Assembly: GCA_964515005.1 (NCBI GenBank) | Contig: CAZEVT010000003.1 | Location: 12,815 to 76,814, forward strand | Length of the DNA: 64,000 nt | Direction: 5' to 3' | DNA from: an uncultured Gammaproteobacteria bacterium | GTDB lineage: Bacteria > Patescibacteriota > Microgenomatia > UBA10105 > UBA927 | Position numbers and translations under genes: made by a program | Shown: positions 3 through 27,632 of the stretch, one piece after another | Numbering within the stretch: position 1 is the first letter of the stretch | How the letters are laid out: each line of letters starts with the position of its first letter | Notes under the pieces: generated by a model | Database searches by the model: none | Seen by the model: the letters and a program-made list of their open reading frames with translations, nothing else | What the model was told of the DNA's origin: nothing

Positions 3-1391
3 TTTTCCACAAGGCTGCCATCGGCAGTCATGGGAATCCTGGCGGTATTGGGGACATATGTACTGGTTCGCGAGCTTTTTGGGAGGAAAAAAGGAGAGGC
101 AGTACCGCTTTTGTCTTCATTTTTGCTTGCAATTTCTCCCTGGCACATTCAGTTTTCCCGAATTGCATTTGAGGCAAATACAGGGATCACGATAAATATT
201 TGGGCTGTGGCGGCATTTCTTGCAGGACTCCGGAGGCGGATATTTCTTCCTGTTTCCGCGGTACTTTTTGGGGTGGGGCTTTATGCATACCACAGTGAAC
301 GTGTCTTTTTGCCACTCATGGTTATTTTTTTGCTGGTTCTCTGTCGCAAGCAGTTGTTCACCTCTGAAAACAAAAAATATGTTGCGGCTGCGATTGTTGT
401 TGGCTTACTCGTGACTATTCCTCTTATTCCCGTATTTTTTAACAAGTCTGCGCTCCTTCGGGCACGAGGGACAAGTTCGTTTACTGATCAGAATAATCTG
501 CTTGCGCGCACCATTGCCAAAATTGAACAGGATCGGAGTGTTGGAGACAGAATGGGAGAGTTGTTGGATAACAGGCGTTTGGTTTGGGTCAAGACGGTGG
601 CCTCCGGATATCTATCTCACTTTTCATTGCAATGGTTGTTTTTAACCGGGGATAATCCGAGACACCACGCGCCTGACATGGGACTCATGTATCTTTGGGA
701 GCTTCCTTTTTTGCTCTACGGCATATACTGGGTCGCCAAGAATGTAAAGGGTCCAACACGCAGTGTTCTTTTTGGATGGTTTTTACTGGCTCCTATTGCG
801 GCCGCCCCCACAACCGGACTTCCCCATGCTATCCGAACGCTTGTTTTTCTGCCCACATTTCAGATATTCACGGCCCTTGGAATTGTTGCCATCGTGACAG
901 CCAGAAAAGGCGTATACAAAAACCTAGCCGCGTATTGCATTATATTCCTCTATGGACTATTTGTGGTGTTTAATTTCGCTTATTATATCGATAAATATTT
1001 TGTACATATGAATCCCGAGTTTTCTGAATATTGGCAATACGGATATGAGGATGCCGTAACGGAGACCGAAAAGATTAAGGGGAAGTATGAAAAAGTCGTC
1101 GTGTCAAATAAACTCGAGCAATCGTATATGTTTTTCCTTTTTTACACGAAATATGATCCCAATAAGTATCTGGCAGGTGGCGGCACGAAATCGGGGAGTT
1201 TTGAGGAGGCACAAAACAAGTTCGACACCTACGAGTTTCGAAAAATAATATGGTCAAATGAGCGGCGTGACGGAACCATTTTGTACGTCGGAGCGCCCGG
1301 CGACATGCCCCACGGAAACGTCAAAAATATTACATTTTTGAACGGGAAGCCGGCAATAGAAATGGCTGATCAGCCAAACGGAGCACCATGA
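3..1391 (+). CDS. Polytopic membrane protein, GT-C-like glycosyltransferase (5' truncated by window edge)
   Basis: The ORF runs open to position 3. Multiple TM helices are followed by a soluble C-terminal domain. It has an S-x-H-I-x-F-S-R loop motif resembling the GT-C domain of the 45246 ORF, and its C-terminal region resembles the 1388 and 6757 proteins. Confidence 0.4.
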   Translation, partial: FSTRLPSAVMGILAVLGTYVLVRELFGRKKGEAVPLLSSFLLAISPWHIQFSRIAFEANTGITINIWAVAAFLAGLRRRIFLPVSAVLFGVGLYAYHSERVFLPLMVIFLLVLCRKQLFTSENKKYVAAAIVVGLLVTIPLIPVFFNKSALLRARGTSSFTDQNNLLARTIAKIEQDRSVGDRMGELLDNRRLVWVKTVASGYLSHFSLQWLFLTGDNPRHHAPDMGLMYLWELPFLLYGIYWVAKNVKGPTRSVLFGWFLLAPIAAAPTTGLPHAIRTLVFLPTFQIFTALGIVAIVTARKGVYKNLAAYCIIFLYGLFVVFNFAYYIDKYFVHMNPEFSEYWQYGYEDAVTETEKIKGKYEKVVVSNKLEQSYMFFLFYTKYDPNKYLAGGGTKSGSFEEAQNKFDTYEFRKIIWSNERRDGTILYVGAPGDMPHGNVKNITFLNGKPAIEMADQPNGAP

Positions 1392-2908
1392 AAAAAATAT
1401 GGATTATTATTGCAATAGTTTTTTTATGGGGAGTGGGTCTTCGTGCTGTGGAGGTATTGAATGGCAACTATTTATTTGGATTTGATATCGGGCGTGACTT
1501 ACTCGTGGCGCGCGATATTGTTGAACATCATAAGTTAACCCTGATTGGTGCGGAAATTGGGTCGGGGAGCGCCGGAATTAACGGTATATTTCAGGGGCCG
1601 GGATATTACTATTTGCTTGCCGTTGTGTATTGGCTTTTCCGCGGTGATCCGTACGGAGTACTCCTTACGATGTTTGCGTTTGGTGTTGCCACGCTCATCG
1701 CCACGTACGTCACGGTGTCCCGCATGTTTGACCGGGTGGTGGCAACACTTGCACTCTTTCTTGTCGGCATATCGCCGCTTATTGTCTCACAGTCGCGGTT
1801 TATTTGGTCGCCGCACCCCGCCTCACTCCTGATTGTTTTTCTTTTGTTTCTTGCATACATGATTCCTACGCGGCCACGCTTATACGCTCCCGCTGCGGTA
1901 TTTCTTGCCGGACTGACGTATCACTTTGAGTTTGCCATGACGGTGCCTATTGTCATGGCTTTGTTTTTGTCGCTTCCCCTCATATTCCGTGTTAAAGATG
2001 TCAGGACATACCTGTACTCTGCCGCGAGCGTGGTGTTGGCGTTTAGTCCTCTGATCGGATTTGAAATGCGTCACGGATGGATGGCTGTGAAGTCAGCGCT
2101 CTCCTACAGCGCGCCTCAAGGGCCTGTGGGTAGTGACGTCTGGTTCCTCCGCATAACCGATCATATGGGTCCGTATATTGCCAACGCGGCAAACTCCTTT
2201 ATACAGGAACATGGACTATTACATGAAAAGTTTTTTGTTGCTCTATCGGGCGCGTTACTCGTTGCGCTTGTTATATTCGCATGGAAAACCAAGAACAAGA
2301 TGCATCGTATGTTTTTCCAATTCTCCTTGCTTCTTTTGGCTACCTCGTATGTCGTACTTCTTTTCCTTAACAATTTCATTTGGGACTACTATCTTATTCA
2401 CGCGCATTTTATCTATATCTATGTTTTTGCCTACTGGCTCGCGTTGACCTTCCGCACAATGAAAAAATCCGTTTTTTCAAAAGCTGCATTCGTGGTACTT
2501 TCGATCTTTCTTTTATCCATGGTCGTATCATCCATTTGGCGCATGAGAGTAAGCTACACCTACGATATTCGCGATTTGGGGGGCGTTGAAAAAATACAGG
2601 GGAAAAAGACGGCAATTGATTACGTCTACACGGACGCCAAGGGGCAACCATTTTCCGAATTTACCTTTATGGCTCCTATCTATACATACCCCTACGAGTA
2701 TCTATTTGAGACGTATGGGAGAAAGAAATACGGATATGCACCGGGGACCGAAAAGAAAGGACTTGTATATCTCATCATCGAGCCTGATGCCTCCAAACCC
2801 TGGACGTATAAAGGGTGGCTTGAAACCGTGATTGTTGATGGAGAAATACTTGATACGGTGACGCTGCCGACCGGGCACATTATACAAAAGCGTATGTTTC
2901 CGCTATGA
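1388..2908 (+). CDS. GT-C fold membrane glycosyltransferase, ArnT/PMT (GT39/83)-like; paralog of 6757..8232
   Basis: 506 aa with an N-terminal TM and the loop motif GFDIGRDLLVARDIVEHHKLTLIG, then about 10 TM helices and a soluble C-terminal domain ending KKYGYAPG...YLIIEPD. Clear paralogy to the 6757 ORF (GPEQGRDFLAIRDIAVNHKLTLIG ... KKYGYLPD...YVVIQRD). Confidence 0.55.
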   Translation: MKKIWIIIAIVFLWGVGLRAVEVLNGNYLFGFDIGRDLLVARDIVEHHKLTLIGAEIGSGSAGINGIFQGPGYYYLLAVVYWLFRGDPYGVLLTMFAFGVATLIATYVTVSRMFDRVVATLALFLVGISPLIVSQSRFIWSPHPASLLIVFLLFLAYMIPTRPRLYAPAAVFLAGLTYHFEFAMTVPIVMALFLSLPLIFRVKDVRTYLYSAASVVLAFSPLIGFEMRHGWMAVKSALSYSAPQGPVGSDVWFLRITDHMGPYIANAANSFIQEHGLLHEKFFVALSGALLVALVIFAWKTKNKMHRMFFQFSLLLLATSYVVLLFLNNFIWDYYLIHAHFIYIYVFAYWLALTFRTMKKSVFSKAAFVVLSIFLLSMVVSSIWRMRVSYTYDIRDLGGVEKIQGKKTAIDYVYTDAKGQPFSEFTFMAPIYTYPYEYLFETYGRKKYGYAPGTEKKGLVYLIIEPDASKPWTYKGWLETVIVDGEILDTVTLPTGHIIQKRMFPL

Positions 2909-4497
2909 AAAAGTTACTCCATAATCCATTGTTTTGGGTAATCGCGGCCTCGCTGCTGCCGATTTTGAGTCTCCTTAACTCGGGCATGCCGGTTGTGCAT
3001 GACGGGCAAGATCATGTCGCGCGGATTGCCAATTTTTATGCAGCCCTCAAAGACGGGATTCTCGTGCCGAGGTGGGCCGCAAACCTCAATTGGGGATACG
3101 GACATCCGGTTCTTATGTTTTTGTACCCGCTGCCCTCGTACCTAGCCAGCCTGTTTCATTTCATAGGATTTTCTCTGGTTGATAGTACAAAGCTAGTGTT
3201 TGGGCTGTCTTTTGTGGCAAGCGCCCTGACTATGTATCTATGGATGCGTGCGGCTTTCGACAAGAACGCGGCGGTTATTGCTGCAGTTTTGTATACATTA
3301 GCTCCCTACCGGTTTGTCGATCTATATGTTCGCGGGGCAATAGGAGAACACCTTGCGTTCGTTTTCCCTCCACTTATATTGTATTTTTTACAGAAGCGTT
3401 CGTTTATTGGCATGTCGGTATCTCTTGCCGCGCTCATTCTTTCCCATAATGCTGTTGCACTTATGTTTCTGCCCATTATCGGGCTCTACGCACTTTATAT
3501 TCTGATTTTTGAAGAGAAGAAAAAGTGGTTGTTTACTGTTCATTGTTTTTTGTCCTTTATTCTGGGTTTTTCCCTGTCTGCCTTTTTTTGGGTCCCTGCA
3601 CTTTTAGAAGGGAGGTTTACTCTCCGCGATATCGTGACTGCGGGTGAGGCACTCAGGCGGTTTGTCCCCTGGTCACAGTTTTTTTACTCTCCGTGGAACT
3701 ACGGGGGAACAGATACGCTGACGAAGTCACTGGGGATCCCGCAGTGGGTGGGGATCATTGGAGCGCTCTTCCTACTTACCAAAACGAAAGAGAAGAAACG
3801 GAAAGTGCTTATTGCGGGTTCGTTCGTGGCTCTGACCGTTTCAATCTTTATGATGACGGAATGGTCACGCCCGATTTGGGCATCAATCAGAATACTGCAA
3901 AATTTCCAGTTTCCTTGGCGGTTTCTTTCGGTGTCTGTGTTTATGGCAGCCTTTCTCGGAGGGATAGCTTTCGCCCAGACAAAAAAATTATTTCTTATTC
4001 TCTACTGCCTATGTATTATTTTCGTAACTTTTCTTATGTGGCATCCAAAAGGATACCAAATTCATGAAGACTCATTGTATTCCGGTGTGTACTCAAGTAC
4101 GACGGATACGGGAGAAAGCAGCCCTATCTGGTCGGTCAGGTTTATGGAGCATGCGCCGGCAGCTCATTTGGAGGTGATCGATGGAAAAGCAACGGTGAAG
4201 GAAACGAAGCGCACGACGACGATTCACGAATATGAGCTTGTCGTCGACAAACCCACGCTGATGCTTGAAAACACCGTGTATTTTCCTGGGTGGATGATAT
4301 ATCTGAATGGGGTTCCCACAGATATTCAGTTCCAAAACCCGAATTACCGCGGACTTATGACGTTTCGAGTGACCGAAGACACAAAATCAGTGCGCGTGGC
4401 GTTTGAGGACACTAAAGTCCGCAAAACCGCAAACGTGATAAGCTTAACATCACTTGTATTTCTGTTTGGACTATTCGTATGGCAAAAAAGAAGATAA
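2905..4497 (+). CDS. Polytopic membrane protein, PTPS-related/YfhO-like putative glycosyltransferase; paralog of 8229..9803
   Basis: 530 aa. N-terminal TM then HDGQDHVARI...PRWAANLNWGYGHP, many TM helices, and a C-terminal extracytoplasmic domain with YFPGW and a terminal TM anchor. Shares these motifs with the 8229 ORF (HDGEYHIIRI...PRWAPDMNSGYGIP...YFPGW). The family name is tentative. Confidence 0.45.
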   Translation: MKKLLHNPLFWVIAASLLPILSLLNSGMPVVHDGQDHVARIANFYAALKDGILVPRWAANLNWGYGHPVLMFLYPLPSYLASLFHFIGFSLVDSTKLVFGLSFVASALTMYLWMRAAFDKNAAVIAAVLYTLAPYRFVDLYVRGAIGEHLAFVFPPLILYFLQKRSFIGMSVSLAALILSHNAVALMFLPIIGLYALYILIFEEKKKWLFTVHCFLSFILGFSLSAFFWVPALLEGRFTLRDIVTAGEALRRFVPWSQFFYSPWNYGGTDTLTKSLGIPQWVGIIGALFLLTKTKEKKRKVLIAGSFVALTVSIFMMTEWSRPIWASIRILQNFQFPWRFLSVSVFMAAFLGGIAFAQTKKLFLILYCLCIIFVTFLMWHPKGYQIHEDSLYSGVYSSTTDTGESSPIWSVRFMEHAPAAHLEVIDGKATVKETKRTTTIHEYELVVDKPTLMLENTVYFPGWMIYLNGVPTDIQFQNPNYRGLMTFRVTEDTKSVRVAFEDTKVRKTANVISLTSLVFLFGLFVWQKRR

Positions 4498-5693
4498 CAC
4501 TATCTATTGCTATGGCGGTATACAACGAAGAGGCAAACCTTGAGTCTTGCCTTTCGTCCGTCGCCTCATTTGCCGATGAAATAGTGATAGTTGACGGAGG
4601 TTCGACAGATCGAACGCGCGAAATAGCCAAAAAGTTTACTTCAAAAATTATTCGCACAGATAATCCTCCGATGTTCCACCTCAACAAACAGAAGGCGCTT
4701 GACGCGTGTGGTGGGGATTGGATTTTGCAGCTTGATGCAGATGAAACAATACCGGCCGAGCTTAAGAAAGAAATTCTTGAGGCAGTGCGCGACGGGTCTA
4801 AAAACGGCTACTACATTCCGCGCAAGAATTACTTCTGGGGTCATTGGATGCGGAAAGGCGGTCAATATCCCGATTACGTGATACGTTTGGTTCGCCGCGG
4901 CAGGGCAAGGTTTCCTTCAAAAACCGTCCACGAGCAGATAGAAGTAGACGGTAAAGTCGGGCACTTAACCCATCCGATGGATCACCTGTCGTACCGAACC
5001 AAGGAGGACTACTTCCGAAAGGCGGATACATATACAACACTCACCGCGCTCGAGATGAAAAAGAATGGAACCCCCAAGAATGCGTGGACGTGGTTACTCT
5101 ATAATATAGTGAAGCCTAAAATGACGTTTCTATCCTTGTTCATCCGACACAAAGGATTTATGGATGGTCGGTACGGACTTATATTTGCCTATTACTCCGC
5201 ACTTCATTTTCCGATTGCCTACAAAAAGTTTTTAAAGTTATTACTTATAACGATTTTCTTTTTAATAGTTACATTCCCCGCACATGCTGACTATGTACTT
5301 CCGTATCCGTCATTTATGCCGGGAAATAAATTGTACAAAGTAACCAGAATTATCGATACGCTTAAGAAGTATTGGTATTTCGGTACTATTGCACAAGCAA
5401 AATATCATTTGGCGCTTTCTGATAAATATTTAGTAGAGGCAAAAACGCTTATGGAGTACAAGCAGTATCTTTTGGGAGTAGACGCCTTGGTACGGTCTGA
5501 CAACGAATTTAAGGCATTGCAACAAACACCGATTGTTAAGGAGGCCGCTGCCGCTCATAAAAAAACCTTATCCGAACTTTTGATAACTACCCCAAAAACA
5601 TTTATCTGGAGTCCGGAGCAATCACCCGCAACAGAGCTTAACTTGGGGCGGATGATACAAACCTCTATTGATCTACGAACGCTATGGCAGTAG
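4479..5693 (+). CDS. GT2 family glycosyltransferase with C-terminal TM segment and extra domain
   Basis: N-terminal SIAMAVYNEE...IVIVDGGSTDRT...LQLDADE is a GT-A (DxD) signature. A hydrophobic helix (LLLITIFFLIVTF) and about 130 aa follow the catalytic domain. Confidence 0.8.
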   Translation: MAKKKITLSIAMAVYNEEANLESCLSSVASFADEIVIVDGGSTDRTREIAKKFTSKIIRTDNPPMFHLNKQKALDACGGDWILQLDADETIPAELKKEILEAVRDGSKNGYYIPRKNYFWGHWMRKGGQYPDYVIRLVRRGRARFPSKTVHEQIEVDGKVGHLTHPMDHLSYRTKEDYFRKADTYTTLTALEMKKNGTPKNAWTWLLYNIVKPKMTFLSLFIRHKGFMDGRYGLIFAYYSALHFPIAYKKFLKLLLITIFFLIVTFPAHADYVLPYPSFMPGNKLYKVTRIIDTLKKYWYFGTIAQAKYHLALSDKYLVEAKTLMEYKQYLLGVDALVRSDNEFKALQQTPIVKEAAAAHKKTLSELLITTPKTFIWSPEQSPATELNLGRMIQTSIDLRTLWQ

Positions 5694-6787
5694 GATTATT
5701 TATCATAACGCTCGCGGCGCTTGGTATATTCTCCTACGGTTTTACGGACCCCAATCTGACACTATCCACGAATCCGTTGTTCCTGCGTTTACACGAGCCT
5801 CTTTTCAACATGGTGTACCACCAACGGCCAACTGCGACGATCCTTTTTCTCTCGCTCCTTTTGATTTTGTTTGTCTGTTATCTATGGTTTCTAAAAAACA
5901 GAGAGAAAATTTTTCCTTCTTGGAACGTAACGCTTAAGATTTTGTTGGTTTCCTCAGTGATGTTTGTTTTTTCATACCCGGCACTTACGTACGATCTTTT
6001 TAACTATATGGCAACGGCAAAAGTTGCGTATCACTATGGAGAAAATCCATACGTGGTAATGCCGGTGGAGATTCCTAATGAACCAAATCTAGCCTTCACG
6101 AGAGCCGCGAATAAATTCGCGCTCTATGGGCCGGTATGGCTTTTGCTTAGCGCGATTCCGCACTTCGTGGGAGCCGGCAATGTCTGGTTGACGATTATCG
6201 CGTTTAAATTTATGAACGCCGTCGTATATCTGGGATTTAGTTATTTCATCTGGCGCATGACGAAAAATCTGACAAACGTAATATTTTTCGCGCTCAATCC
6301 ACTGGTGCTTATCGAAGTCCTTATGAACGGCCATAACGATATCTACATGATGGTACTTGCACTTTTGGGAATTTGGTTTTGGCAAAAGGGAAAGAAAATA
6401 AATGGCATCATAACGTTAGTTGCTTCTTGGTTTATAAAGGGCGCAACGCTACCTCTCATTTTTGTGATGAACAAATCGCTGGTTTGGTCCTACTGGATTC
6501 TAGCAGCCGTATTTTTTATTCTCGCGCCTTTACGCGAAGAGTTGTATCCATGGTATGCGGTTTGGCTTATTATGACAGCTTCATTACTGCCTATGAAGAC
6601 CCATCGGTTTCTCGCGGCTTTTACGCTTGTTCTGTCTTTTGCACTGGAACTGCGGCATCTTCCGTATATGTGGATGGGGTATTATGAAGGACCAGGGCCG
6701 ATGTTAAGGCTCGCACTTACTGTTGTACCGGTAGGTGTGTTTCTCGTGGGCCACGTATGGATAAAAAAACTAAGATTTTTCTCATAG
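5684..6787 (+). CDS. Polytopic membrane protein, possible GT-C (GT87/DUF2029-like) glycosyltransferase
   Basis: 367 aa with about 10 predicted TM helices and conserved loop residues (NGHND). No soluble domain. The call is made by architecture and context only. Confidence 0.3.
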   Translation: MAVGLFIITLAALGIFSYGFTDPNLTLSTNPLFLRLHEPLFNMVYHQRPTATILFLSLLLILFVCYLWFLKNREKIFPSWNVTLKILLVSSVMFVFSYPALTYDLFNYMATAKVAYHYGENPYVVMPVEIPNEPNLAFTRAANKFALYGPVWLLLSAIPHFVGAGNVWLTIIAFKFMNAVVYLGFSYFIWRMTKNLTNVIFFALNPLVLIEVLMNGHNDIYMMVLALLGIWFWQKGKKINGIITLVASWFIKGATLPLIFVMNKSLVWSYWILAAVFFILAPLREELYPWYAVWLIMTASLLPMKTHRFLAAFTLVLSFALELRHLPYMWMGYYEGPGPMLRLALTVVPVGVFLVGHVWIKKLRFFS

Positions 6788-8232
6788 GACTTGCTATTAT
6801 TGCATTCGTTTTGCGATGGTACCTGATGCCGGATCAATTGTTTTTTGGCCCGGAGCAGGGAAGGGATTTCTTGGCCATCCGCGATATCGCGGTCAACCAT
6901 AAATTGACGCTCATCGGCTCCAAAACAGACATTGACGGAGTTTTTCACGGCCCGATTTTTTACTATCTTGCATCCGTCCCGTTTGCGCTTTCCCAGGGAA
7001 ACCCTCTTGGCGTTTCTGCGTTTTTTATATTCATTCAGAGTATTACTGTATTTTTGGCGTACCTGCTTGCATACGAATTAACCAAAAGTCGCCGTGCGGG
7101 ACTCATTGCCGCCACCCTTTTTGCTGTGAGTTATTTGTTAATCGTGTATGCCCGCTGGCTTTCCAATCCTCCGCTCTCCATTCCGCTCTCTTTATTATTT
7201 ATCCTTTCCTTACTTCGGTTTGTGCGCGGTCGTCCGTGGTATCTGGTCGCGGCCGCATTCGTATATGGAATGATCGGACAGGCAGAGTTTATTAATTATT
7301 TACTCTTTGCGGTTATCGGGGTAATTACCTGCTTCATGTACCGGAAAACGGTGGTGCGAACCAGGCCGCTCATTCTCGCCGCGGCCGCAGCAGTGGGTGT
7401 ACTGACATCACTTATCACCTATGTGGCGTTTGATCTTCGGCACGAATTTCTTGTATCCAATGCAGTTGCGGGCCTGCTTATGGGTAAAACCGGATACCGG
7501 TTGGATTTTTTTGGTTCGATAGCGGGAGCATTCAAAATGTTGTGGGAGCAAGCATCAGCAATTCTCGGGTTTTCCGGCCGCACCGCCGGATTTATGTTGA
7601 TTGTTGGGATTGCGTTTGTCTTAATCCGGGCGACGAAAAAGAATCCGGATCACCGCATCCTCGCCGTATGGATATTCGCGCCGCCCGTCGTATTTTCACT
7701 TCTTCGGCATGCAATGCTCGAGCAGTTGTACGCGGGGGTTATCGCCGGACTCCTTATTGGCCTTTCCCTCCTTATTGAATCCATCATGCGGTGGAATGCA
7801 AGGCTCGGGCGAGTACTACTACTTCTGTCCATTGTCATGAGTTTGAGCGTTGTGTACAGGAATCTTCCTATCAATAGGAACGTTTTTTTTCAGGGACCGC
7901 AACCGGCCGTGAGGTATTCGGATCAACTTGCCGCTATCGATTGGGTATACGAACGTGCACAAGGAAGACCCTTTTCTTTTCAGGCATACACAATTCCGTA
8001 CTTTTGGCAGGATGCATGGACATATCTTCTTGGGTATTACGGCAATAAGAAATACGGGTATCTGCCGGATGACCAAGGACGAAAGCTGATGTACGTAGTC
8101 ATCCAAAGGGATACACTTGACCCCGGATTCCAGAAAAAATGGTATGAGGAAACGGTGTCAAAATGGGGGACACGAACGAGTCAGGAAACTATCGGTGAAT
8201 ATCGCGTAGAAGAACTCGCCGTAGGCCTATGA
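6757..8232 (+). CDS. GT-C fold membrane glycosyltransferase, ArnT/PMT-like; paralog of 1388..2908
   Basis: 491 aa with the same N-terminal loop motif and C-terminal KKYGY...D domain as the 1388 ORF. Confidence 0.55.
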   Translation: MDKKTKIFLIGLAIIAFVLRWYLMPDQLFFGPEQGRDFLAIRDIAVNHKLTLIGSKTDIDGVFHGPIFYYLASVPFALSQGNPLGVSAFFIFIQSITVFLAYLLAYELTKSRRAGLIAATLFAVSYLLIVYARWLSNPPLSIPLSLLFILSLLRFVRGRPWYLVAAAFVYGMIGQAEFINYLLFAVIGVITCFMYRKTVVRTRPLILAAAAAVGVLTSLITYVAFDLRHEFLVSNAVAGLLMGKTGYRLDFFGSIAGAFKMLWEQASAILGFSGRTAGFMLIVGIAFVLIRATKKNPDHRILAVWIFAPPVVFSLLRHAMLEQLYAGVIAGLLIGLSLLIESIMRWNARLGRVLLLLSIVMSLSVVYRNLPINRNVFFQGPQPAVRYSDQLAAIDWVYERAQGRPFSFQAYTIPYFWQDAWTYLLGYYGNKKYGYLPDDQGRKLMYVVIQRDTLDPGFQKKWYEETVSKWGTRTSQETIGEYRVEELAVGL

Positions 8233-9803
8233 AAAAACGTATAACCATTATCGCCGCTTGTATGGTTATTGTCGGCGTCAGCTATGCGGTGCTGCCTCTT
8301 TTCGGTCGCTCCTATATTCCGACTCATGACGGGGAATATCACATTATTCGCATTGTGGAGTTTGCAAAGATGCTTGGCGCCGGGTACGTGATACCAAGAT
8401 GGGCCCCAGACATGAATAGTGGCTACGGTATACCGATTTTTAACTACCATTATCCATTGCCTAATTATATCGGATCGTTTGTTCGCATATTTACGAATGA
8501 TGCTGTCTATGCATTTCAAATGAGCATGGGTTTAGGCTATATAGCCCTTGCCGCCGGCGCATTATTATGGCTTTCGGCGATGTTTGGGGCCGTTGCTGCG
8601 CTCGTGGGTACGACGGTCGCGATGTTTGTTCCGTATCTATTTGTGGATCTCTATGTGCGCGGTTCAATCGGTGAGGTTTGGGCGATAGCGTTTCTTTTCC
8701 TGGCACTCAACTTTATAGAAAAAAAGAAGTATATATGGTTCGCGGTGGCTTTAGGGTTTCTTATCTTAAGCCACAATATTTTAGCAATGCTTTTTACTGC
8801 CTTTATCTTTTTTTACCTCTTCATCCAAGACCGCAGAGCCATTCTCTGGATGTTGGGAGGATTGGGATTGTCTGCATTTTTCTGGTTGCCGGCCGTCCTG
8901 GAGCAGAAGTTTGTGGTCGGCCTCAATACCGTTAACTTTCGTGAGCATTTCGTTGCCATCCACGAACTACTCATACCTTCCTGGGGGACCGAGTTTTCCG
9001 GAACAGGAAGCGTGGGAAATAAAATATCTTTTCAGATAGGCTTGGCGCCGATACTGGTGATGGCAGGCGCGCTCTGGGCGTTTCGCCGGGAAAAATCAAA
9101 ACCGCCAAAACGACTCATTATGTTATTTGCGACAGTGATAAGTCTTGGTGTCCTACTTATGCTTCCCATGTTTACGGCTTTCTGGGAATGGGTGAAACCC
9201 TTACAACTCATGCAGTATCCCTGGAGGCTACTGTCGTTTGTCATTCCTGTTGCAGGCTTTGCCGCGGCATACTGGGTAAGTAAGCTAAAAAGACAGTGGT
9301 TGGGGTTGTTTGTTGGGTTGATTGCCGTGTTTTTTGCCGCAGCCTACGCCCGGCCGGTTTTGTATCAACCGAGGAATGAAGCGTATTATCTTTCTCGCGC
9401 AAACTTCACCGATGGAACGTCATCCATGGGCAATAGTTTTTCTACCATTTGGACTGGCTGGAAAAACAGTCGATCGTCGTCTCCCGCAACCGTTAAAAAC
9501 GGAGTTTTAGTGGAGGCGTCGCCTACAAAGTATTTGGATAAGAAATTTTTGGTTTCCATGGATAAAGAAGGGTCGGTTGTCGTCAATACGCTTTATTTTC
9601 CCGGTTGGAAGGCGTTTGTCGATGGCCGAGAAACACCCATTGCCTACACGGGTCATGGTCTTATTGAACTAGCTGTTCCGTCTGGTGAACATACTATCGT
9701 TGTCGCATTCACAGATACCTTGCCCAGAAAAGCAGGTAATATAGTCTCACTCGTTAGTTTGGCGGTACTGTTGTTTTTAGGGTATACTCGCAGAAGAAAA
9801 TGA
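8229..9803 (+). CDS. Polytopic membrane protein, PTPS-related/YfhO-like; paralog of 2905..4497
   Basis: 524 aa with the HDGEYH...PRWAPDMNSGYGIP motif block, many TM helices, a C-terminal YFPGW domain and a terminal TM anchor. Confidence 0.45.
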   Translation: MKKRITIIAACMVIVGVSYAVLPLFGRSYIPTHDGEYHIIRIVEFAKMLGAGYVIPRWAPDMNSGYGIPIFNYHYPLPNYIGSFVRIFTNDAVYAFQMSMGLGYIALAAGALLWLSAMFGAVAALVGTTVAMFVPYLFVDLYVRGSIGEVWAIAFLFLALNFIEKKKYIWFAVALGFLILSHNILAMLFTAFIFFYLFIQDRRAILWMLGGLGLSAFFWLPAVLEQKFVVGLNTVNFREHFVAIHELLIPSWGTEFSGTGSVGNKISFQIGLAPILVMAGALWAFRREKSKPPKRLIMLFATVISLGVLLMLPMFTAFWEWVKPLQLMQYPWRLLSFVIPVAGFAAAYWVSKLKRQWLGLFVGLIAVFFAAAYARPVLYQPRNEAYYLSRANFTDGTSSMGNSFSTIWTGWKNSRSSSPATVKNGVLVEASPTKYLDKKFLVSMDKEGSVVVNTLYFPGWKAFVDGRETPIAYTGHGLIELAVPSGEHTIVVAFTDTLPRKAGNIVSLVSLAVLLFLGYTRRRK

Positions 9804-10840
9804 ACATTGCTATTGACACGTCACCTCTTCATACCGAGCACGGTAGGCGTGGCGTGGGGACCTACGCTAAGAATCTAATCGCTTCATTGAAACAGTACGC
9901 AAGTGAACATTCGTATACTTTATTTACCCGAAAACAAAATATACCCATTAATGCGGATATAGTCCATTATCCGTACTTTGATCCGTTTTTTTTGACGCTC
10001 CCCATCATTAAGCCAAAACCCACGGTCGTGACCGTCCATGATCTTACGCCGCTTGTATTTCCGGGCAAATTTCCCGCCGGGCTTCGCGGGGGGGTGAAAT
10101 GGCAAATTCAAAAACAGTCACTATTGGGAGCCAAAAGAATATTGACGGATTCGGAATATTCCAAACGCGACATCGAGAGAATAATCGGTATCTCCCCATC
10201 CCGCATAGACGCTATTCACCTGGCGCCGGATCCACAATTTATTCGGGTTACAGATGTCAAACTTTTGACGGCAGTCAAGAAAAAATTTGAACTACCTGAC
10301 CGCTTTGTGTTGTATGTTGGGGACGTCAACTGGAACAAAAACGTTCAAGGGCTTCTCAAGGCGTTCGCGCAGTTGGCGCCAAAGGCGAAGCTGGTATTGG
10401 TTGGTGCGGCTTTTACAAATCCGGGGCTTGCCGAAACCAAAGACATACAAAGAGTTATACAATCGCTGAATGTAGCCCAATCAGTAATACTTACTGGCTT
10501 TGTTTCGGGTCGGGAACTTTCGGCTCTTTATTCACTTGCGACCTGTCTTGTTCTCCCTTCTTTTTACGAGGGATTCGGATTCCCGATGCTCGAGGCTATG
10601 GCGTGCGGTTGTCCGGTGGTTACGGCGACTACCTCATCGCTTCGGGAAATAGCCGGTCCTGCCATTGGGGTTCAGCCGGAACGCATAGAGTCGATCGCAG
10701 AGGGGATGTCACACATATTTACTTTGACGCCGAGTGAGCGCGAAAAACTGGTAGGCGAGGGAGATGCATGGGTGAGGAGGTTCACCTGGAAGAAGACTGC
10801 ACGGCAAACGGTCGCCTCATATGAAAGGGCCATGCAGTGA
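9800..10840 (+). CDS. GT4 family glycosyltransferase (GT-B)
   Basis: C-terminal EGFGFPMLEAMACGCPVV motif (the E-x7-E region) and an N-terminal MNIAIDTS...GVGTY start, both typical of GT4. Confidence 0.85.
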   Translation: MNIAIDTSPLHTEHGRRGVGTYAKNLIASLKQYASEHSYTLFTRKQNIPINADIVHYPYFDPFFLTLPIIKPKPTVVTVHDLTPLVFPGKFPAGLRGGVKWQIQKQSLLGAKRILTDSEYSKRDIERIIGISPSRIDAIHLAPDPQFIRVTDVKLLTAVKKKFELPDRFVLYVGDVNWNKNVQGLLKAFAQLAPKAKLVLVGAAFTNPGLAETKDIQRVIQSLNVAQSVILTGFVSGRELSALYSLATCLVLPSFYEGFGFPMLEAMACGCPVVTATTSSLREIAGPAIGVQPERIESIAEGMSHIFTLTPSEREKLVGEGDAWVRRFTWKKTARQTVASYERAMQ

Positions 10841-11523
10841 AAAAACTTTCGATTATTATTCCGGTCTATAACGAAGAGAAAACAGTCGCGGAAATTCTTA
10901 CCCGCGTTTGGCGGGCTCCGCTTGCCGGGTGGGAGAGGGAAATTATCGTCATCGACGACGGATCAACGGATACCACGAGGAAAATTTTAAAATCCTGGGA
11001 GAAAAAGGTGACCGTCCTGTATAGGTCGAAGAACGAAGGGAAGGGAAGCGCGGTAACGATGGGACTACGCAAATCTTCGGGCGATATTATCCTCATGCAG
11101 GATGCGGATCTGGAATATAGCCCGGATGATTACCCGGTACTCCTGACGCCATTTGAAAATGATCACGTCAACATTGTCTACGGCTCACGATTTCTAGGCC
11201 CCCATCTTTCGACCATGTTTATCTATGCCCAGGGGAACAAGTTTGTGACGCTCGTGACCAATCTCTTGTTTAATACAAACATTACCGATATGGAAACAGG
11301 ATATAAAGTGTTCCGGAAAAAAGTTCTTGAAGGTATAACTATTCGCGCCAAACGATTTGATGTTGAACCCGAGCTCACCGCCAAGGTGCTGAAGAAAGGG
11401 TATCAGATTTATGAAGTCCCCATATCCTATTTTGGTCGCAAGTTTTCAGAGGGAAAGAAGCTTACATGGAGAGACGGCGTCGTAGCGCTCTGGACGCTTA
11501 TCAAATTACGATTCGTAGACTAA
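10837..11523 (+). CDS. GT2 polyprenyl-phosphate glycosyltransferase (DPM1/GtrB-like)
   Basis: IIIPVYNEE...IIVIDDGSTDTT...MQDADLEY over 228 aa, the size and motifs of dolichyl/undecaprenyl-phosphate sugar synthases. Confidence 0.8.
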   Translation: MKKLSIIIPVYNEEKTVAEILTRVWRAPLAGWEREIIVIDDGSTDTTRKILKSWEKKVTVLYRSKNEGKGSAVTMGLRKSSGDIILMQDADLEYSPDDYPVLLTPFENDHVNIVYGSRFLGPHLSTMFIYAQGNKFVTLVTNLLFNTNITDMETGYKVFRKKVLEGITIRAKRFDVEPELTAKVLKKGYQIYEVPISYFGRKFSEGKKLTWRDGVVALWTLIKLRFVD

Positions 11524-11532
11524 CCAAGTTTT

Positions 11533-12792
11533 ATGCATCTTAGAGGATTAATTCAGAAAGTCATGTCGCATACTCTCGCCAAGAGTAGTGCAATTGTGTT
11601 TGCCGGAACCATGACGGCAAATGTTTTTGCGTACGTTTATCACCTGCTAATGGGAAGGCTTCTGGGTCCGGCTGGATACGGCGAGCTGTCATCGCTTATT
11701 TCTCTTTTGTACGTATTTTCCGTACCACTGACCGTTGCCAATACGGTAATTGTGAAATACGTTTCCGGTTTTAAGGCGCGAGGGGAAATGGGTCAGGCAA
11801 AATTCCTTTTTTTGAAGTTGACAAAGGTGTTCGCCGTAATTAGCATCATGGGATTTCCCATCGCATACATTGCGGCTCCGACTATCGCATCTTTTCTTCA
11901 TTTGAATTCCCCAGTATTATTTGTTTGGGTCTATCTTCTTTTGGTTTTATCACTTTTGACCGTGGCTGCACTCGGCACACTTACGGGATACCAGAAGTTT
12001 ATCTGGGTCAGCGTGCTTGGGGCTGCAGGACTTCTTCTTAAAGTGGTTTTGAGTATTCCTGCAGTTTCCTGGGGTGTATCCGGGGTTTTGGGCGCTGCGG
12101 TGCTCGCAAGTTTTGTGGGATACGTATGGTTTTTTATTCCGCTTCGGTTTATTCTTCGGGCGAAAGCAAAACCAACCGGGTTAACCGGGAGAGACGCATT
12201 TCGGTATGCGGTGCCGACTTTTCTGACGCTCTTGGGAATAACTTCGCTCTATTCAACAGATATCATTCTCGTGCGTCATTTCTTTGATATGGAAGCTGCG
12301 GGTTTGTACGCGGCACTTGCGGTTCTTGGAAAAATTATCTTTTATGCGTCATCGGCGGTAGGCGTCGTGCTGTTTCCGGTCGTCTCGGAACGCGTGGCGC
12401 GAGGTACTGCAACTCACAAGCTCATTGTGATTGCCGCAGGCAGCGTGGCTTTGCTCTCTCTGGTTCTTACGGCAATATATTTCGTTTTTCCCCATGTCAT
12501 CATAAGCCTACTCTTCGGTAATGCGTACGCGGGAGGTGCGCAGTACTTGGGGCTGTTCGGGGTGTTTCTGGCGCTTTTTTCAATCGGCAACATTATCGCG
12601 CTGTCGTGCCTGGCGCTAGGGAAAACCGGTATAGGAGTCGTCACTATGATTCCCGCGCTGCTCCAGATCGTGGGTATCGGTCTATTTCACGAGAGTATCT
12701 CCTCTGTTATACTTCTCAACATTGCGGTTTCTGCCTTATTTGTTCTTTTATCAGGCGGATATTATTTGAAGACAGCCTATGAAAAAGTTTAG
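11533..12792 (+). CDS. MOP-superfamily polysaccharide flippase (Wzx-like)
   Basis: 419 aa with about 12 TM helices. The N-terminal RLLGPAGYGELS matches the Polysacc_synt R-x-LG-x-E-x-YG signature. Confidence 0.55.
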   Translation: MHLRGLIQKVMSHTLAKSSAIVFAGTMTANVFAYVYHLLMGRLLGPAGYGELSSLISLLYVFSVPLTVANTVIVKYVSGFKARGEMGQAKFLFLKLTKVFAVISIMGFPIAYIAAPTIASFLHLNSPVLFVWVYLLLVLSLLTVAALGTLTGYQKFIWVSVLGAAGLLLKVVLSIPAVSWGVSGVLGAAVLASFVGYVWFFIPLRFILRAKAKPTGLTGRDAFRYAVPTFLTLLGITSLYSTDIILVRHFFDMEAAGLYAALAVLGKIIFYASSAVGVVLFPVVSERVARGTATHKLIVIAAGSVALLSLVLTAIYFVFPHVIISLLFGNAYAGGAQYLGLFGVFLALFSIGNIIALSCLALGKTGIGVVTMIPALLQIVGIGLFHESISSVILLNIAVSALFVLLSGGYYLKTAYEKV

Positions 12793-13570
12793 TCTTATCA
12801 TCCCGGTATACCGGCAGGAAAAAACCATTAAGAGAGATATAGAAGAAGTGTTGGCGACTCTCAAGGGTACCGGGCGCGACTTTGAAATTATTCCCGTTAT
12901 CGACGGGTGGCTGGATAATAGTCTCAAAGAGGCCAGGAAAGTCAAAGATTCACGCGTGCGCGTCGTAGGATACGCAACCAACCATGGAAAGGGGTACGCA
13001 GTACGATATGGATTTTCCGAGGCTCGAGGGGACGTTATCGGATTTAAAGATGGAGGGATGGACCTTAAAGTCAAAGCACTTCCTTTGATGCTTGCGCAAT
13101 TCGAATTTCAGCAGGCAGACATCGTTATCGGCAGTAAACGTCATCCGGATTCGAAAGTTGAATATCCGTTTATTCGGAGAATTATTTCGTGGGGTTACCA
13201 GAAGTTTGCTAAATTACTTTTCGGATTGGATGTGACCGATACGCAGGTAGGGATGAAAATCTACAAGCGGCGTGTCCTTGAAGACGTTCTTCCCAGACTC
13301 TTGGTAAAGCAATTTGCCTTTGATATTGAAATATTGGCCGTTGCCTACCATCTGGGGTACAAAAAGATTTTTGAGGCGCCGGTCGAGATAGACCTTTTTA
13401 CCTCAAAATCGAGTATTGTGTGGGAGAAAATGCTTAAGATTATCTTCAACGTGCTCAATGACACATTTGCGGTATTTTACCGCCTACGGATACGCCGCTA
13501 CTACGATGACGCGAGTAAACGGAAGTGGCGTTTTGATCCGGAACTGAATTTCCGCATAAACATCGGCTAA
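12779..13570 (+). CDS. GT2 family glycosyltransferase
   Basis: LIIPVYRQE...IIPVIDGWLDNS...GFKDGGMD is a GT-A-like fold, 263 aa. Confidence 0.7.
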   Translation: MKKFSLIIPVYRQEKTIKRDIEEVLATLKGTGRDFEIIPVIDGWLDNSLKEARKVKDSRVRVVGYATNHGKGYAVRYGFSEARGDVIGFKDGGMDLKVKALPLMLAQFEFQQADIVIGSKRHPDSKVEYPFIRRIISWGYQKFAKLLFGLDVTDTQVGMKIYKRRVLEDVLPRLLVKQFAFDIEILAVAYHLGYKKIFEAPVEIDLFTSKSSIVWEKMLKIIFNVLNDTFAVFYRLRIRRYYDDASKRKWRFDPELNFRINIG

Positions 13571-19178: not shown

Positions 19179-20213
19179 ATGGTAGACAAATTAGTTTCGA
19201 TTATTATCGTCAATTGGAACGGCATTAAATGGCTACCGGGGTGTTTTGGGTCGCTTGCGGCGCAGGACTACAAAAACCATGAAATTATTTTTGTCGATAA
19301 TGCCTCGAAGGATGAATCTGTATCGTGGGTTAGAAAACATTATCCAAAAACAAAAATTGTTATAAATAAAGAAAATCTCGGTTTTGCCGATGCCAATAAC
19401 GTAGGCTTCAGGAAAGCAAAAGGGAAATATATATTGTTTCTAAATAATGACACGAGGGTTACTAAAACATTCTTAAACGAGTTGGTGAAAGTTATCGAAA
19501 GCCACAAAAAAATTGCAGGAGTGCAAAGCAAAATTCTCCTCATGGACCATCCAGATACCCACGATAGCGTGGGCGCGTTTCTAACGCCGACGGGATTTCT
19601 TTACCACTATGGCTTTGGGAAAAAGGACCAAAAAAAATATGACAAGCAAATTGATCTTTATACCGCTAAAGGCGCCTGTATGATGTTTAAAAAAGTAGTT
19701 CTGGATCGAGTGACGGTGAATAGTGATATTTTCGACCCGGACTATTTTGCCTACTTTGAAGAATCTGACATGTGTCACAGGGTGTGGCTGGCGGGTTACA
19801 GGATCGTCTATGCCTACGATTCGGTAATTTACCATAAGATGGGCGCCACAAGCGCAGGCATGAATAATGCATTCATCCAGTATCATTCTTTTAAAAACAG
19901 GATCCGCTCATATCTCAAAAACTTCGGTACGCTATGGCTCTGGACCATTTTACCTGTTCATTTGGTGCTTTGCGAGATCTATGCGATCGCTTCGTATCTA
20001 CGGGGCAACTGGGCACTCGGATGGGCAATAGAGCGTGCCTACTGGTGGAATATAAAGCATTTTTCGGAAACGGTATCGATTAGGCGGAAAATCCAACGTG
20101 ATATTCGGATTGTTCCCGATTCGGCTATAGAAAACTTACTATTAGTTAGACCAAGACTTACCTATTATAAAAATCTAATTTCAGGGGACTTAGTTTCCTA
20201 TGAAGATAAGTAA
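19179..20213 (+). CDS. GT2 family glycosyltransferase (rhamnosyltransferase-like)
   Basis: VSIIIVNWNG...IIFVDNASKDES...LNNDT. Confidence 0.85.
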   Translation: MVDKLVSIIIVNWNGIKWLPGCFGSLAAQDYKNHEIIFVDNASKDESVSWVRKHYPKTKIVINKENLGFADANNVGFRKAKGKYILFLNNDTRVTKTFLNELVKVIESHKKIAGVQSKILLMDHPDTHDSVGAFLTPTGFLYHYGFGKKDQKKYDKQIDLYTAKGACMMFKKVVLDRVTVNSDIFDPDYFAYFEESDMCHRVWLAGYRIVYAYDSVIYHKMGATSAGMNNAFIQYHSFKNRIRSYLKNFGTLWLWTILPVHLVLCEIYAIASYLRGNWALGWAIERAYWWNIKHFSETVSIRRKIQRDIRIVPDSAIENLLLVRPRLTYYKNLISGDLVSYEDK

Positions 20214-20946: not shown

Positions 20947-20980
20947 AAATGACAAATAAACTATATTTTAGTACAGAATT

Positions 20981-22036: not shown

Positions 22037-22087
22037 ATTTTGATCCCCAAGTATAACACAAAAGTATTCGAGGAAGAGTGAATAAGG

Positions 22088-22093
22088 TATAAT
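22088..22093 (+). promoter_or_regulatory. TATAAT -10 box 6 nt upstream of ATG 22100 (leaderless geometry)
   Basis: A perfect TATAAT in the divergent spacer between the 20981(-) and 22100(+) genes. Confidence 0.35.
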
Positions 22094-22099
22094 TAGACA

Positions 22100-22882: not shown

Positions 22883-22903
22883 TAGTTTGTGTATAATGAC
22901 GAT

Positions 22904-23872: not shown

Positions 23873-23891
23873 TTAGAAGAAGGATATTTAT

Positions 23892-24716: not shown

Positions 24717-24718
24717 TA

Positions 24719-26681: not shown

Positions 26682-26690
26682 CTGACCAGT

Positions 26691-27554: not shown

Positions 27555-27632
27555 ACGGTACAGTATAGCTCCTTTTGATTAGCTTTGGAAGGTAATATGA
27601 TACAATTCCTAAGACTTATTTGAAAAGGACGT

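Follow-up and report, generated by a model that had tools for sequence, protein, structure and literature searches.

The 64-kb stretch of DNA analysed here (the window) comes from the genome of a member of the Gottesmanbacteria (CPR), and most of it is given to surface glycan synthesis. CPR bacteria, or Patescibacteria, are mostly uncultured episymbionts with tiny genomes, and their cell surface mediates attachment to the host. Within a long cell-surface-sugar operon, two pairs of genes for GT-C glycosyltransferases follow one another in the same order, A1 before B1 and A2 before B2 (Table 1). This raises the question whether the pair was duplicated as a unit and whether its members depend on each other in function, as an earlier note on this DNA had proposed. 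The reading that in our view explains the data best, and that we regard as fairly probable as a whole, is a different one: independent GT-C enzymes working in series, encoded by a conserved glycan operon into which A2 has been inserted secondarily.

Table 1. Genes of the GT-C array and of the segment downstream of it (positions in the window).
Gene	Coordinates	Strand	Size	Product and remarks
GTC0	3..1391	+		PMT_2-type GT-C glycosyltransferase (Pfam PMT_2 E=2e-9, 38.3 bits); first gene of the GT-C array; 5' end truncated by the window edge, full 548-aa ortholog in locus L001; 4-bp ATGA overlap with A1
A1	1388..2908	+	506 aa	GT-C of a large uncharacterised PMT_2-like subfamily, mostly CPR
B1	2905..4497	+	530 aa	PTPS_related (PF10131) GT-C glycosyltransferase
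GT2-DUF5667 fusion	4479..5693	+		GT2 (GT-A) catalytic domain, TM helix and DUF5667 (Pfam Glycos_transf_2 and DUF5667)
MptA/MptB-like	5684..6787	+	367 aa	Small GT-C; weak match to NCBIfam TIGR03459 (MptA), E=6e-8
A2	6757..8232	+	491 aa	Paralog of A1, in a separate deep A subclade
B2	8229..9803	+	524 aa	Paralog of B1; PTPS_related GT-C with YfhO-like C-terminal tail
GT4	9800..10840	+		Cytoplasmic GT-B glycosyltransferase (Pfam Glycos_transf_1 E=1e-30); conserved downstream partner of B2
Short GT2	10837..11523	+		Resembles polyprenyl-phosphate sugar synthases (AglJ, Dpm1, ArnC, PgfS)
Wzx-like	11533..12792	+		Polysaccharide flippase (Polysacc_synt, PF01943, 34.2 bits against a cut-off of 28.2)
Second short GT2	12779..13570	+		Paralog of the first short GT2 (BLASTP E=2e-25); Pfam GT2

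The open reading frames of A1, B1, A2 and B2 have the bounds given by the earlier note, all on the forward strand, and together with GTC0 and the MptA-like gene they form an array of six GT-C genes, more than the two pairs. As evidenced by BLASTP, A1 and A2 are full-length paralogs with 28% identity over ~494 columns (E=1e-24), and the same holds for B1 and B2 with 30% identity over 531 columns (E=6e-65). In an all-against-all BLAST comparison of the open reading frames of the window, A2 was the sole match of A1, and B2 the sole match of B1. Smith-Waterman alignment gave a score of 329 for A1/A2 (z=32) and of 604 for B1/B2 (z=99) with means of ~46 for shuffled sequences, while the z-scores for A against B were only 0.3-2.1. 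An artefact of the composition of transmembrane segments was rejected on the basis of these shuffles and of the composition-adjusted BLAST E-values. Both paralog pairs are real but ancient, and the claim of diverged pairs in the same gene order is upheld. The sequence motifs quoted for them are present, with the correction that HHKLTLIG occurs in A1 only and reads NHKLTLIG in A2, so that the common block is HKLTLIG.

The family and fold assignments also stand: A is a borderline PMT_2 (GT39/GT83-like) GT-C and B a PTPS_related GT-C. AlphaFold models of A1 and B1 (pLDDT 91.1 and 90.3, respectively) both display the GT-C fold. Their top Foldseek matches in the PDB were all GT-C enzymes (STT3, AglB, PglB, ArnT, AftD and ALG12/9/3; probability 1.0, E-values of 1e-4 to 2e-6, TM-scores of 0.35-0.55), with STT3, AglB, ArnT and ALG12 retrieved by A1 and AftD, STT3, AglB, PglB and ArnT by B1. 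A sequence search of the PDB with A1 and B1 yielded no meaningful match. Both B proteins exceed the gathering threshold of PTPS_related (63.2 bits for B1 and 35.5 for B2, against 26.4). For PMT_2 (PF13231, threshold 26.1 bits), A1 remains below with 21.0 bits and A2 is barely above with 26.9; most A homologs bear a precomputed PF13231 assignment, and databases label them 'GT39 family' or 'ArnT-like'. Judging from the models, the resemblance of A to ArnT appears to be one of fold only. B2 falls short of the YfhO family (PF09586) with 23.4 bits against a threshold of 28.5, in a match that covers no more than ~50 positions at the end of the profile (774-824 of 835), and B1 has no match, while some B1 orthologs carry a precomputed one. 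In NCBIfam, A1 and B1 were without matches, and A2 and B2 had only weak ones below threshold (Agl23, PgfM1, AZOBR_p60025).

A and B have the GT-C membrane core alone in common (hhalign 94.5%). The C-terminal outer domain of A1 is of the alpha/beta type and bears the motif KKYGY, and B1 ends in a beta-sandwich with the motif YFPGW, followed by the last TM helix. In both families it is the first outer loop where conservation concentrates. The end of TM1 falls near residue 24 in A1 and B1, and some 10 residues beyond it lies an invariant aspartate: D37 in the motif F-G-x3-G-R-D of the A family (92 sequences), and D33, invariant along with H37 and R40, in the motif H-D-G-x-D-H-x2-R of the B family (68 sequences). 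In GT-C enzymes, an acidic residue amid a dense invariant block of this loop is the hallmark of catalysis, and Asp37 in A and Asp33 in B are the putative catalytic residues. All four proteins are predicted to be catalytically competent GT-C glycosyltransferases of two remotely related subfamilies; fold and motif position are the basis for this predicted activity, as they are for the presumed donors and acceptors of both families.

We further compared the window with ~85 related loci. Note that the sampling was seeded on A-family motifs and is thus biased toward loci that contain A genes. Across Gottesman-, Levy-, Shapirobacteria and others, the Microgenomates share an operon in which PMT_2-like GT-C genes and one to four A-type genes are followed by B1, a GT2, a DUF5667 protein, an MptA-like GT-C (with PF26314, MptA_B_family, in relatives), B2, a GT4, a Dpm1-like GT2, a Wzx-like flippase and a further GT2. 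The gene upstream of B1, assigned in 37 loci, is A1 in 21, A3 in 5, A4 in 2, a short A-like gene in 4, GTC0 in 2, a second B1 in 2 and another gene in 1. Some A-type gene, from any of four subclades, thus precedes B1 in 32 loci (~86%), and a non-A gene, such as another GT-C, in 5. The 24 B2 orthologs follow the MptA-like GT-C in 15 cases, A2 in 4 and other genes in 5, among them a Dpy19-like gene in at least two loci (L009, L030); the next gene downstream is the GT4 in 21 of the 24. Solo A1-type genes exist as well. Masked sequence was rejected as the origin of loci with only an A gene, as these have an N content of ~0 and are flanked by unrelated genes. At 20-30 kb, the cluster in the window includes a low-GC block that is rich in methyltransferases and has genes on the opposite strand.

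Such variability could mean that the paralogs serve as alternatives and do not act in sequence, and that the GT-C array is a diversification hotspot that changes the surface glycan between strains, driven for example by phage or host pressure, with A2 as an optional decorating enzyme. The varying number of A-type genes per locus is in line with this, as are the tandem B1 duplicates in loci L009 and L011, the slot before B2 that holds an MptA-like, a Dpy19-like or an A2 gene, the repeated gain and loss of A2 among close relatives, and the low-GC block in the same cluster. The core order GTC0-A-B1-GT2-DUF5667-Mpt-B2-GT4-GT2-Wzx-GT2, however, is strongly kept over deep divergences and therefore points to a fixed core pathway. 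We consider diversification possible, if rather doubtful as the main explanation; it is compatible with serial action and does not exclude it.

The earlier note had rightly observed that stop and start codons overlap by 4 bp in each pair, and at both junctions, A1/B1 and A2/B2, an ATG start lies over a TGA stop (ATGA). The same type of overlap is found in the window at GTC0/A1, B2/GT4, GT4/GT2 and 14708/15829. Among the related loci, GT-C junctions overlap by 4 bp at rates of 42-52% (11/21 for A1-B1, 31/74 for GTC0-GTC0), with a lower rate for GTC0-A1 (9/28), and GT4-GT2 junctions do so in 100% of cases. As a specific mark of the pairs the ATGA coupling was therefore rejected, as overlaps occur throughout the operon. 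A mirror-tree analysis of 13 genomes, in which mis-assignment of A paralogs may blur the result, gave a partial r of 0.08 for A1-B1, and hence no special signal of co-evolution, versus 0.80 for the MptA-like protein and B2, which make a candidate co-evolving pair.

These values bear on the question whether the GT-C enzymes form defined heteromers, of an A-type protein with B1 or, following the hint from co-variation, of the MptA-like protein with B2, to which A2 would add an exchangeable third subunit. An obligate heteromer should be reflected in co-occurrence, which was not observed: no A2 adjoins B2 in 20 of 24 loci, B2 outlasts the loss of A2, and for A1 and B1 the solo A1-type genes and the five loci with a non-A gene before B1 lead to the same result. 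Of the earlier suggestion of a heterodimeric or sequentially acting pair, sequential action thus remains plausible, but an obligate pair does not. With A genes adjoining B1 in 32 of 37 loci, and one in two A1-B1 junctions overlapping by 4 bp, a partnership of A and B1, whether physical or kinetic, stays conceivable, and we rate defined heteromers as unlikely. If they did exist, Microgenomates would build a complex surface lipoglycan or glycoprotein wholly outside the membrane, with six to ten GT-C enzymes joined in a multi-subunit assembly line. We know of no such machine encoded by a single operon in bacteria.

The history of the A2-B2 adjacency was analyzed in neighbour-joining trees of 20-100 sequences. 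As evidenced by a bootstrapped tree of flanking genes, the arrangement is confined to one subclade of Gottesmanbacteria, where it is kept in seven sampled genomes down to ~49% A2 identity, and at least two nested lineages in this subclade are without A2 while B2 is kept (bootstrap 98-100). In a genome scan, only a single A-family locus each was found in two completely sequenced chromosomes where A2 is missing before B2, and none of the 120 A2 homologs listed is on a contig of their length. OY969569.1 and OY970230.1 are among the genomes without A2. In all non-Gottesman and basal Gottesman lineages sampled, B2 stands after the MptA-like gene, which is its ancestral upstream neighbour. Outside the A2-B2 arrangement, A2 orthologs have a GT2 as neighbour or precede other A genes in the array before B1, as in Levybacteria and others, or stand alone.

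An ancestral A-B module, encoding an obligate heterodimer or strictly coupled GT-C pair, might still have been duplicated as a unit, with A2 later lost or moved in most lineages. This would account for the identical order and ATGA coupling of both pairs in the window, for the similar divergence of the paralogs, for the frequent placement of an A gene before B1 and for the persistence of A2-B2 within its subclade, and heterodimeric GT-C enzymes are known (Pmt1-Pmt2, PDB 6p25; EmbA-EmbB). The distribution and loss of A2 next to B2, the position of A2 orthologs elsewhere, the changing neighbours of B1, the solo A genes, the low A1-B1 correlation and the unspecific overlaps all stand against it, and this model is already disfavoured and to our mind improbable. 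The proposed functional interdependence is not supported on the same grounds, and the check suggested in the earlier note, whether the pair is always adjacent, comes out negative for A2 and B2; the conspicuous 'duplicated pair' probably does not act as a unit. That one member of each pair is a scaffold or binds the acceptor instead of transferring sugar would fit the distinct C-terminal outer domains of A and B and the speculation in a review that smaller GT-Cs may need a second protein for acceptor recognition (PMC8035078), but given the invariant aspartate and dense invariant block in both families and the occurrence of A and B genes without each other, it is highly improbable.

We thus return to independent enzymes acting in series. 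The A1/A2 and B1/B2 splits would be old paralogies that arose as a tandem GT-C array evolved by birth and death of genes, and the repeated A-then-B order in this genome would be secondary: A2 probably entered the gap between the MptA-like gene and B2 in the common ancestor of a single Gottesmanbacteria subclade, and at least two later losses left B2 in place. The operon would be a conserved cell-surface glycan operon of the Microgenomates, in which GT2 enzymes of the cytoplasm would attach sugars to polyprenyl phosphate. The first short GT2, with NCBIfam matches to AglJ (7e-33), dolichyl-P hexose transferase (2e-18), ArnC (6e-18) and PgfS (4e-17) that are all below equivalog cut-offs, is the candidate synthase of a lipid-linked donor for the GT-C enzymes, and the second a possible further one. 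The lipid-linked sugars would then be flipped across the membrane (the gene for a Wzx-like protein lies close by), and each outward-facing GT-C may transfer a single sugar, in a linkage specific to that enzyme, to an acceptor outside the cytoplasm, presumably a growing glycopolymer, lipoglycan or glycoprotein.

The earlier note did not recognise the arrangement from described systems, yet related ones are known, in Pgf glycosylation (PMC12041528), in multi-component transmembrane glycosylation (PMC8035078) and in Pmt1-Pmt2 (PDB 6p25). The multi-component systems of Gram-positive bacteria combine a GT-A of the CsbB/GtrB type, a flippase of the GtrA/Wzx type and a GT-C of the YfhO/GtlB/GacL type (PMC8035078). 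Judged from its genes, the operon holds the same set, with Dpm1/CsbB-like GT2s, a Wzx-like flippase and GT-Cs of the PMT_2 and YfhO/PTPS_related types, and it would share the logic of a lipid-linked monosaccharide donor used outside the membrane. It differs in having at least six GT-C genes instead of one, none of which reaches the YfhO cut-off of Pfam. The characterised systems modify teichoic acids or rhamnans, neither of which CPR bacteria are known to produce. The Pgf operon for O-glycosylation in Streptococcus mutans (PgfS, PgfE, PgfM1, PgfM2) likewise unites two GT-Cs, with different and apparently successive roles, with a GT-A lipid-sugar synthase (PMC12041528). The tail of B2 has a weak similarity to the PgfM1 model (E=2e-4; 19 bits, far below the equivalog cut-off of 1,400), but both Pgf transferases, PgfM1 and PgfM2, measure ~900 aa and have a YfhO domain, whereas A and B represent two families (PMT_2-like and PTPS_related) of ~500 aa.

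A paralogous GT-C series that extends one glycan stepwise from polyprenyl-phosphate sugars is also found in mycobacteria (EmbA/B/C, AftA-D, MptA/B/C) and in the ER lumen (ALG3/9/12). The structural searches retrieved AftD, AftA, EmbC, ALG12, ALG9 and ALG3, among others, and the operon includes an MptA_B-family gene. The identity in the structural alignments is only 11-16%, however, the Emb proteins and AftD are much larger and have big carbohydrate-binding domains, and the mycobacterial GT-C genes do not form one operon. EmbA and EmbB are a heterodimer encoded by adjacent genes. With ArnT (GT83) and Pmt1-Pmt2 (GT39), the A family shares the GT-C fold, a weak PMT_2/PMT signal in Pfam for A1 and A2, and the acidic residue in loop 1, but A1 stays below the PMT_2 gathering score, MIR domains are absent, and Foldseek finds Pmt1-Pmt2 with an E-value of no better than 0.09. 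As far as we know, lipid A, the substrate of ArnT, is not expected in these organisms.

Literature searches for PF10131 and for Gottesmanbacteria with glycosyltransferase yielded nothing specific to the A or B families, and no paper was found in the library searched that links CPR bacteria with GT-C enzymes. The A family comprises ~1,985 clusters at 50% identity (E<=1e-30), and these ~2,000 clusters are without a characterised or solved member. We are thus dealing with new, uncharacterised members of known enzyme classes in an arrangement of known logic, modest as a discovery, but with an operon that is now mapped in its conserved core order, its variable slots and the candidate pair of the MptA-like protein and B2. 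Among its other genes, the GT2-DUF5667 fusion, with its TM helix at residues 251-269, has a split counterpart in relatives (L003, L004, L086, L087), consisting of a GT2 of ~256 aa and a small protein of ~160-200 aa. This pairing of a GT2 with a small membrane protein, fused in the window, recalls GacI/GacJ of the multi-component systems.

The four genes at issue are embedded in a longer run of GT-C and other glycosyltransferase genes (see table). All-vs-all BLAST among the 54 ORFs of the window returned A2 as the sole match of A1, aligning over its full length with 28% identity (E=1e-24), and B2 as the sole match of B1, at 30% identity (E=6e-65). A shuffle control gave z=32 for A1/A2 and z=99 for B1/B2, with A-versus-B pairs at 0.3-2.1, and excludes transmembrane composition as the cause of the similarity. 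The earlier note is thereby borne out on the paralogy, as it is on the coordinates and strand of the four genes, reproduced exactly in the ORF table, and on the 4-bp stop/start overlap within each pair, an ATGA (ATG over TGA) at both the A1/B1 and the A2/B2 junction. The shared motif blocks that it quoted were also found, except that 'HHKLTLIG' reads 'NHKLTLIG' in A2.

Genes of the two paralogous pairs and their GT-C/GT neighbours in the window
Gene	Coordinates	Strand	Length	Description
PMT_2 GT-C	3..1391			window starts inside the gene
A1	1388..2908	+	506 aa	PMT_2-like GT-C
B1	2905..4497	+	530 aa	PTPS_related GT-C
GT2-DUF5667	4479..5693			GT2 fused to DUF5667 membrane domain, between the pairs
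MptA-like	5684..6787			MptA/MptB-like GT-C, between the pairs
A2	6757..8232	+	491 aa	PMT_2-like GT-C
B2	8229..9803	+	524 aa	PTPS_related GT-C

At the level of families, both B proteins belong to PF10131 (PTPS_related; 63.2 bits for B1 and 35.5 for B2, cut-off 26.4), while the C-terminal tail of B2 matches YfhO below the threshold and the protein falls outside that family; the A proteins are borderline for PMT_2 (A1 21.0 and A2 26.9 bits against a cut-off of 26.1). A sequence search found no relatives of A or B in the PDB. AlphaFold models built from alignments of 92 (A1) and 68 (B1) sequences reached pLDDT values of 91.1 and 90.3, and their top Foldseek matches in the PDB were exclusively GT-C enzymes, namely STT3, AglB, PglB, ArnT, AftD, ALG12/9/3 and AftA (probability 1.0, E 1e-4 to 2e-6, TM 0.35-0.55, identity 11-16%). 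The predicted structures thus place A and B in the GT-C fold, which supports the original family assignment at fold level; both are therefore predicted GT-C transferases whose solved relatives are all distant. Profile-profile comparison (hhalign 94.5%, E=7.5e-8, 250 columns) showed that they have only the GT-C membrane core in common; the models end in an alpha/beta outer domain in A (~400-506) and in a beta-sandwich (~422-500) plus one final TM helix in B. Conservation in both families peaks in the first extracytoplasmic loop, immediately past TM1, with F30, G31, G35, D37, L52 and G54 plus G70 and P88 invariant in the A family, which comprises 1,985 representatives of 50%-identity clusters (E<=1e-30), and with D33, H37 and R40, then P55-R56-W57 and then G64-Y65-G66-x-P68 in the B family. 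As this loop is the site of the catalytic acidic residue in GT-C enzymes, we infer that A and B are probably active enzymes rather than accessory subunits.

The earlier note had further read the A-B pair as duplicated as a unit, and had taken this to point to functional interdependence. Using the A-family alignment, we drew 80 loci from genomes that represent GTDB species; nine more came from exact-protein look-ups, and every ORF was classified by phmmer with the window proteins as seeds. A conserved operon recurs across Gottesman-, Levy-, Shapirobacteria and others, in the order two to four PMT_2-like GT-Cs, one to four A-type genes, B1, a GT2 (~256 aa), a small DUF5667 protein, an MptA-like GT-C, B2, a GT4, a GT2 (228 aa), a Wzx-like flippase and a GT2 (263 aa). 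In neighbour-annotated trees of the A and B clades, the gene upstream of B2 is A2 in only 4 of 24 cases, MptA-like in 15 and another in 5, and the downstream gene is the GT4 in 21/24. Of the 37 genes upstream of B1, 21 are A1, five and two belong to a third and a fourth A subclade, and four are short A-like genes; two are further PMT_2 GT-Cs, two are tandem copies of B1 itself and one is a different gene. B genes do duplicate without an A gene, as two adjacent B1-type genes (544-576 aa) stand in two related genomes (L009 11492-14800, L011 11522-14800). A1-type genes occur solo in five loci (L018, L019, L022, L031, L044), in most at ~10001-11500, among unrelated neighbours and distant from B genes and glycan operons. 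Note that the slot before B2 holds a Dpy19-like (C-mannosyltransferase-type) GT-C in L030 (12449-13171; Pfam E=1.3e-10) and in L009 (18482-20092; a weak 0.009), and likewise in L011.

The position of A2 beside B2 has a narrow distribution. Outside the relatives of the window, A2-clade genes follow a Dpm1-like GT2 (L055, L060, L063, L069, L089), lie upstream of another A gene preceding B1 (L049, L064), precede a GT2 (L052) or stand apart from any cluster (L079, L080). Look-ups from A2 homologs found the order Mpt-A2-B2-GT4 kept down to ~49% A2 identity (L086-L088); a genome of Levybacteria whose A2 has 43% identity (L089) lacks it. A neighbour-joining tree of concatenated B1, GT2, B2 and GT4 (1,641 columns, 100 bootstraps) places the A2-B2 arrangement in a single subclade of Gottesmanbacteria only; inside it, MptA-like-B2 is kept without A2 in L016 (98%) and in L006/L007/L017, a clade with 100% support that is sister to the window plus L086. 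The most parsimonious reading of this tree is a single insertion of A2 beside B2, followed by at least two losses. Complete chromosomes are available for two genomes that lack A2; each has a single A-family locus in a genome scan, and none of the 120 A2 homologs listed falls on a contig of matching length, which suggests, short of proof, that A2 was lost rather than relocated. Duplication as a unit, and the interdependence read from it, are thus not supported, given these losses with B2 kept, the rarity of A2 before B2, the A2 genes near other neighbours, the solo A1-type genes and the varied predecessors of B1; the co-occurrence expected of an obligate heteromer was not found for the A/B pairs. 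Judged from these comparisons, the evolution of the locus is best described as birth-and-death of a tandem GT-C array.

The four-base start/stop overlap is a property of the whole operon, present in the window at GTC0/A1 (GTC0 being the PMT_2-type GT-C upstream of A1), A1/B1, A2/B2, B2/GT4 and GT4/GT2, and across loci at A1-B1 in 11/21 cases, Mpt-B2 in 7/15, B2-GT4 in 9/21, GTC0-GTC0 in 31/74, GT4-GT2 in 14/14 and GT2-DUF5667 in 11/13. A mirror-tree test on the 13 genomes holding all seven core genes, with partial r controlling for the other genes, lent no support to an A-B partnership: A1-B1 (r=0.54, partial r 0.08) ranks among the lowest values of the operon, and MptA-like/B2 (r=0.96, partial r 0.80) is the highest, in a crude test with n=13, non-independent pairs and possible mis-assignment of A paralogs. 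As MptA-like and B2 are also ancestral neighbours, a functional or physical partnership would be more plausible for them than for A-B.

A and B add new members, so far uncharacterised, to enzyme classes that are already known, and the type of pathway is a known one as well. We propose that the operon encodes a glycosylation scheme expanded to six or more GT-Cs, in which each enzyme would attach a single sugar, by a single linkage, to an extracytoplasmic glycan or glycoprotein as it grows. A1 and A2, like B1 and B2, would then be old paralogs that have each specialised in a step of their own, and A2 an optional step in some Gottesmanbacteria. This logic of one step per GT-C is that of the mycobacterial Mpt/Aft/Emb enzymes and of the ALG3/9/12 series in the ER lumen, both represented among the structural matches. 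That defined heteromeric GT-C complexes form an extracytoplasmic assembly line here seems unlikely to us. EmbA-EmbB is a heterodimeric GT-C. Another, Pmt1-Pmt2 (PDB 6p25), is among the Foldseek matches, and the Pgf system of S. mutans (PgfS, PgfM1, PgfM2) has two GT-Cs with successive roles in one operon (PMC12041528). The arrangement, which the earlier note had not recognised from described systems, therefore has precedent.

Downstream of B2, the window continues with the GT4, a short Dpm1/AglJ/ArnC/PgfS-like GT2, a Wzx-like flippase and a second short GT2, and the remainder holds sugar-nucleotide-modifying enzymes (a DegT aminotransferase, epimerases/dehydratases, a UDP-GlcNAc 2-epimerase), many methyltransferases, further GT2 and GT4, another PMT-type GT-C, a Wzy_C-like 998-aa protein and a DUF4012 protein. 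Source records name the homologs Candidatus Gottesmanbacteria / Microgenomates, i.e. CPR; many MAGs (L008, L010-L012, L014-L016, others) bear the operon, clearly of Microgenomates type, under the title 'uncultured Gammaproteobacteria bacterium', which in these deposited assemblies is most likely a mislabel or a placeholder. In the complete Gottesmanbacteria chromosome L004, a gene of the bAvd / 23S_rRNA_IVP family (20806-21183) lies between a GT2 and a GT4 inside the syntenic glycan cluster; bAvd is an accessory protein of diversity-generating retroelements.

GT2 and the DUF5667 protein are nearly always two genes in relatives (L003 13161-13931 and 13979-14467; L086 3787-4554 and 4551-5027), usually with a 4-bp overlap. 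In the window they form a putative fusion of 404 aa with an intervening TM helix, and this possible Rosetta-stone case suggests that GT2 and the small membrane protein may act jointly, recalling GacI/GacJ of lipid-linked GlcNAc synthesis. BLAST to the GT4 at 9800-10840 (residues 1-140 and 169-342) recognised an apparently split GT4 (N-half 51730-52260, C-half 52257-52775, 4-bp overlap) and an N-half-only fragment (42209-42742) before a full-length GT4 (42739-43845); these fragments may represent split genes, pseudogenes or what remains of a duplication. GC content is 0.37-0.41 at ~20000-30000 and 0.44-0.51 elsewhere, bar 58-60 kb (0.385). The low-GC block contains methyltransferases, epimerases, one GT and the opposite-strand genes of the window (20981-22036, 24719-27554), and could be a part of the glycan cluster that is variable or was acquired horizontally. 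Five large ORFs of 503-998 aa in the cluster encode uncharacterised, possibly membrane, proteins: Pfam gave no match for 29787-31700, 33602-36571, 36581-38092 and 38089-39936, and only a weak Wzy_C (O-antigen ligase/polymerase-like) match (E=5e-4) for 45246-48242.
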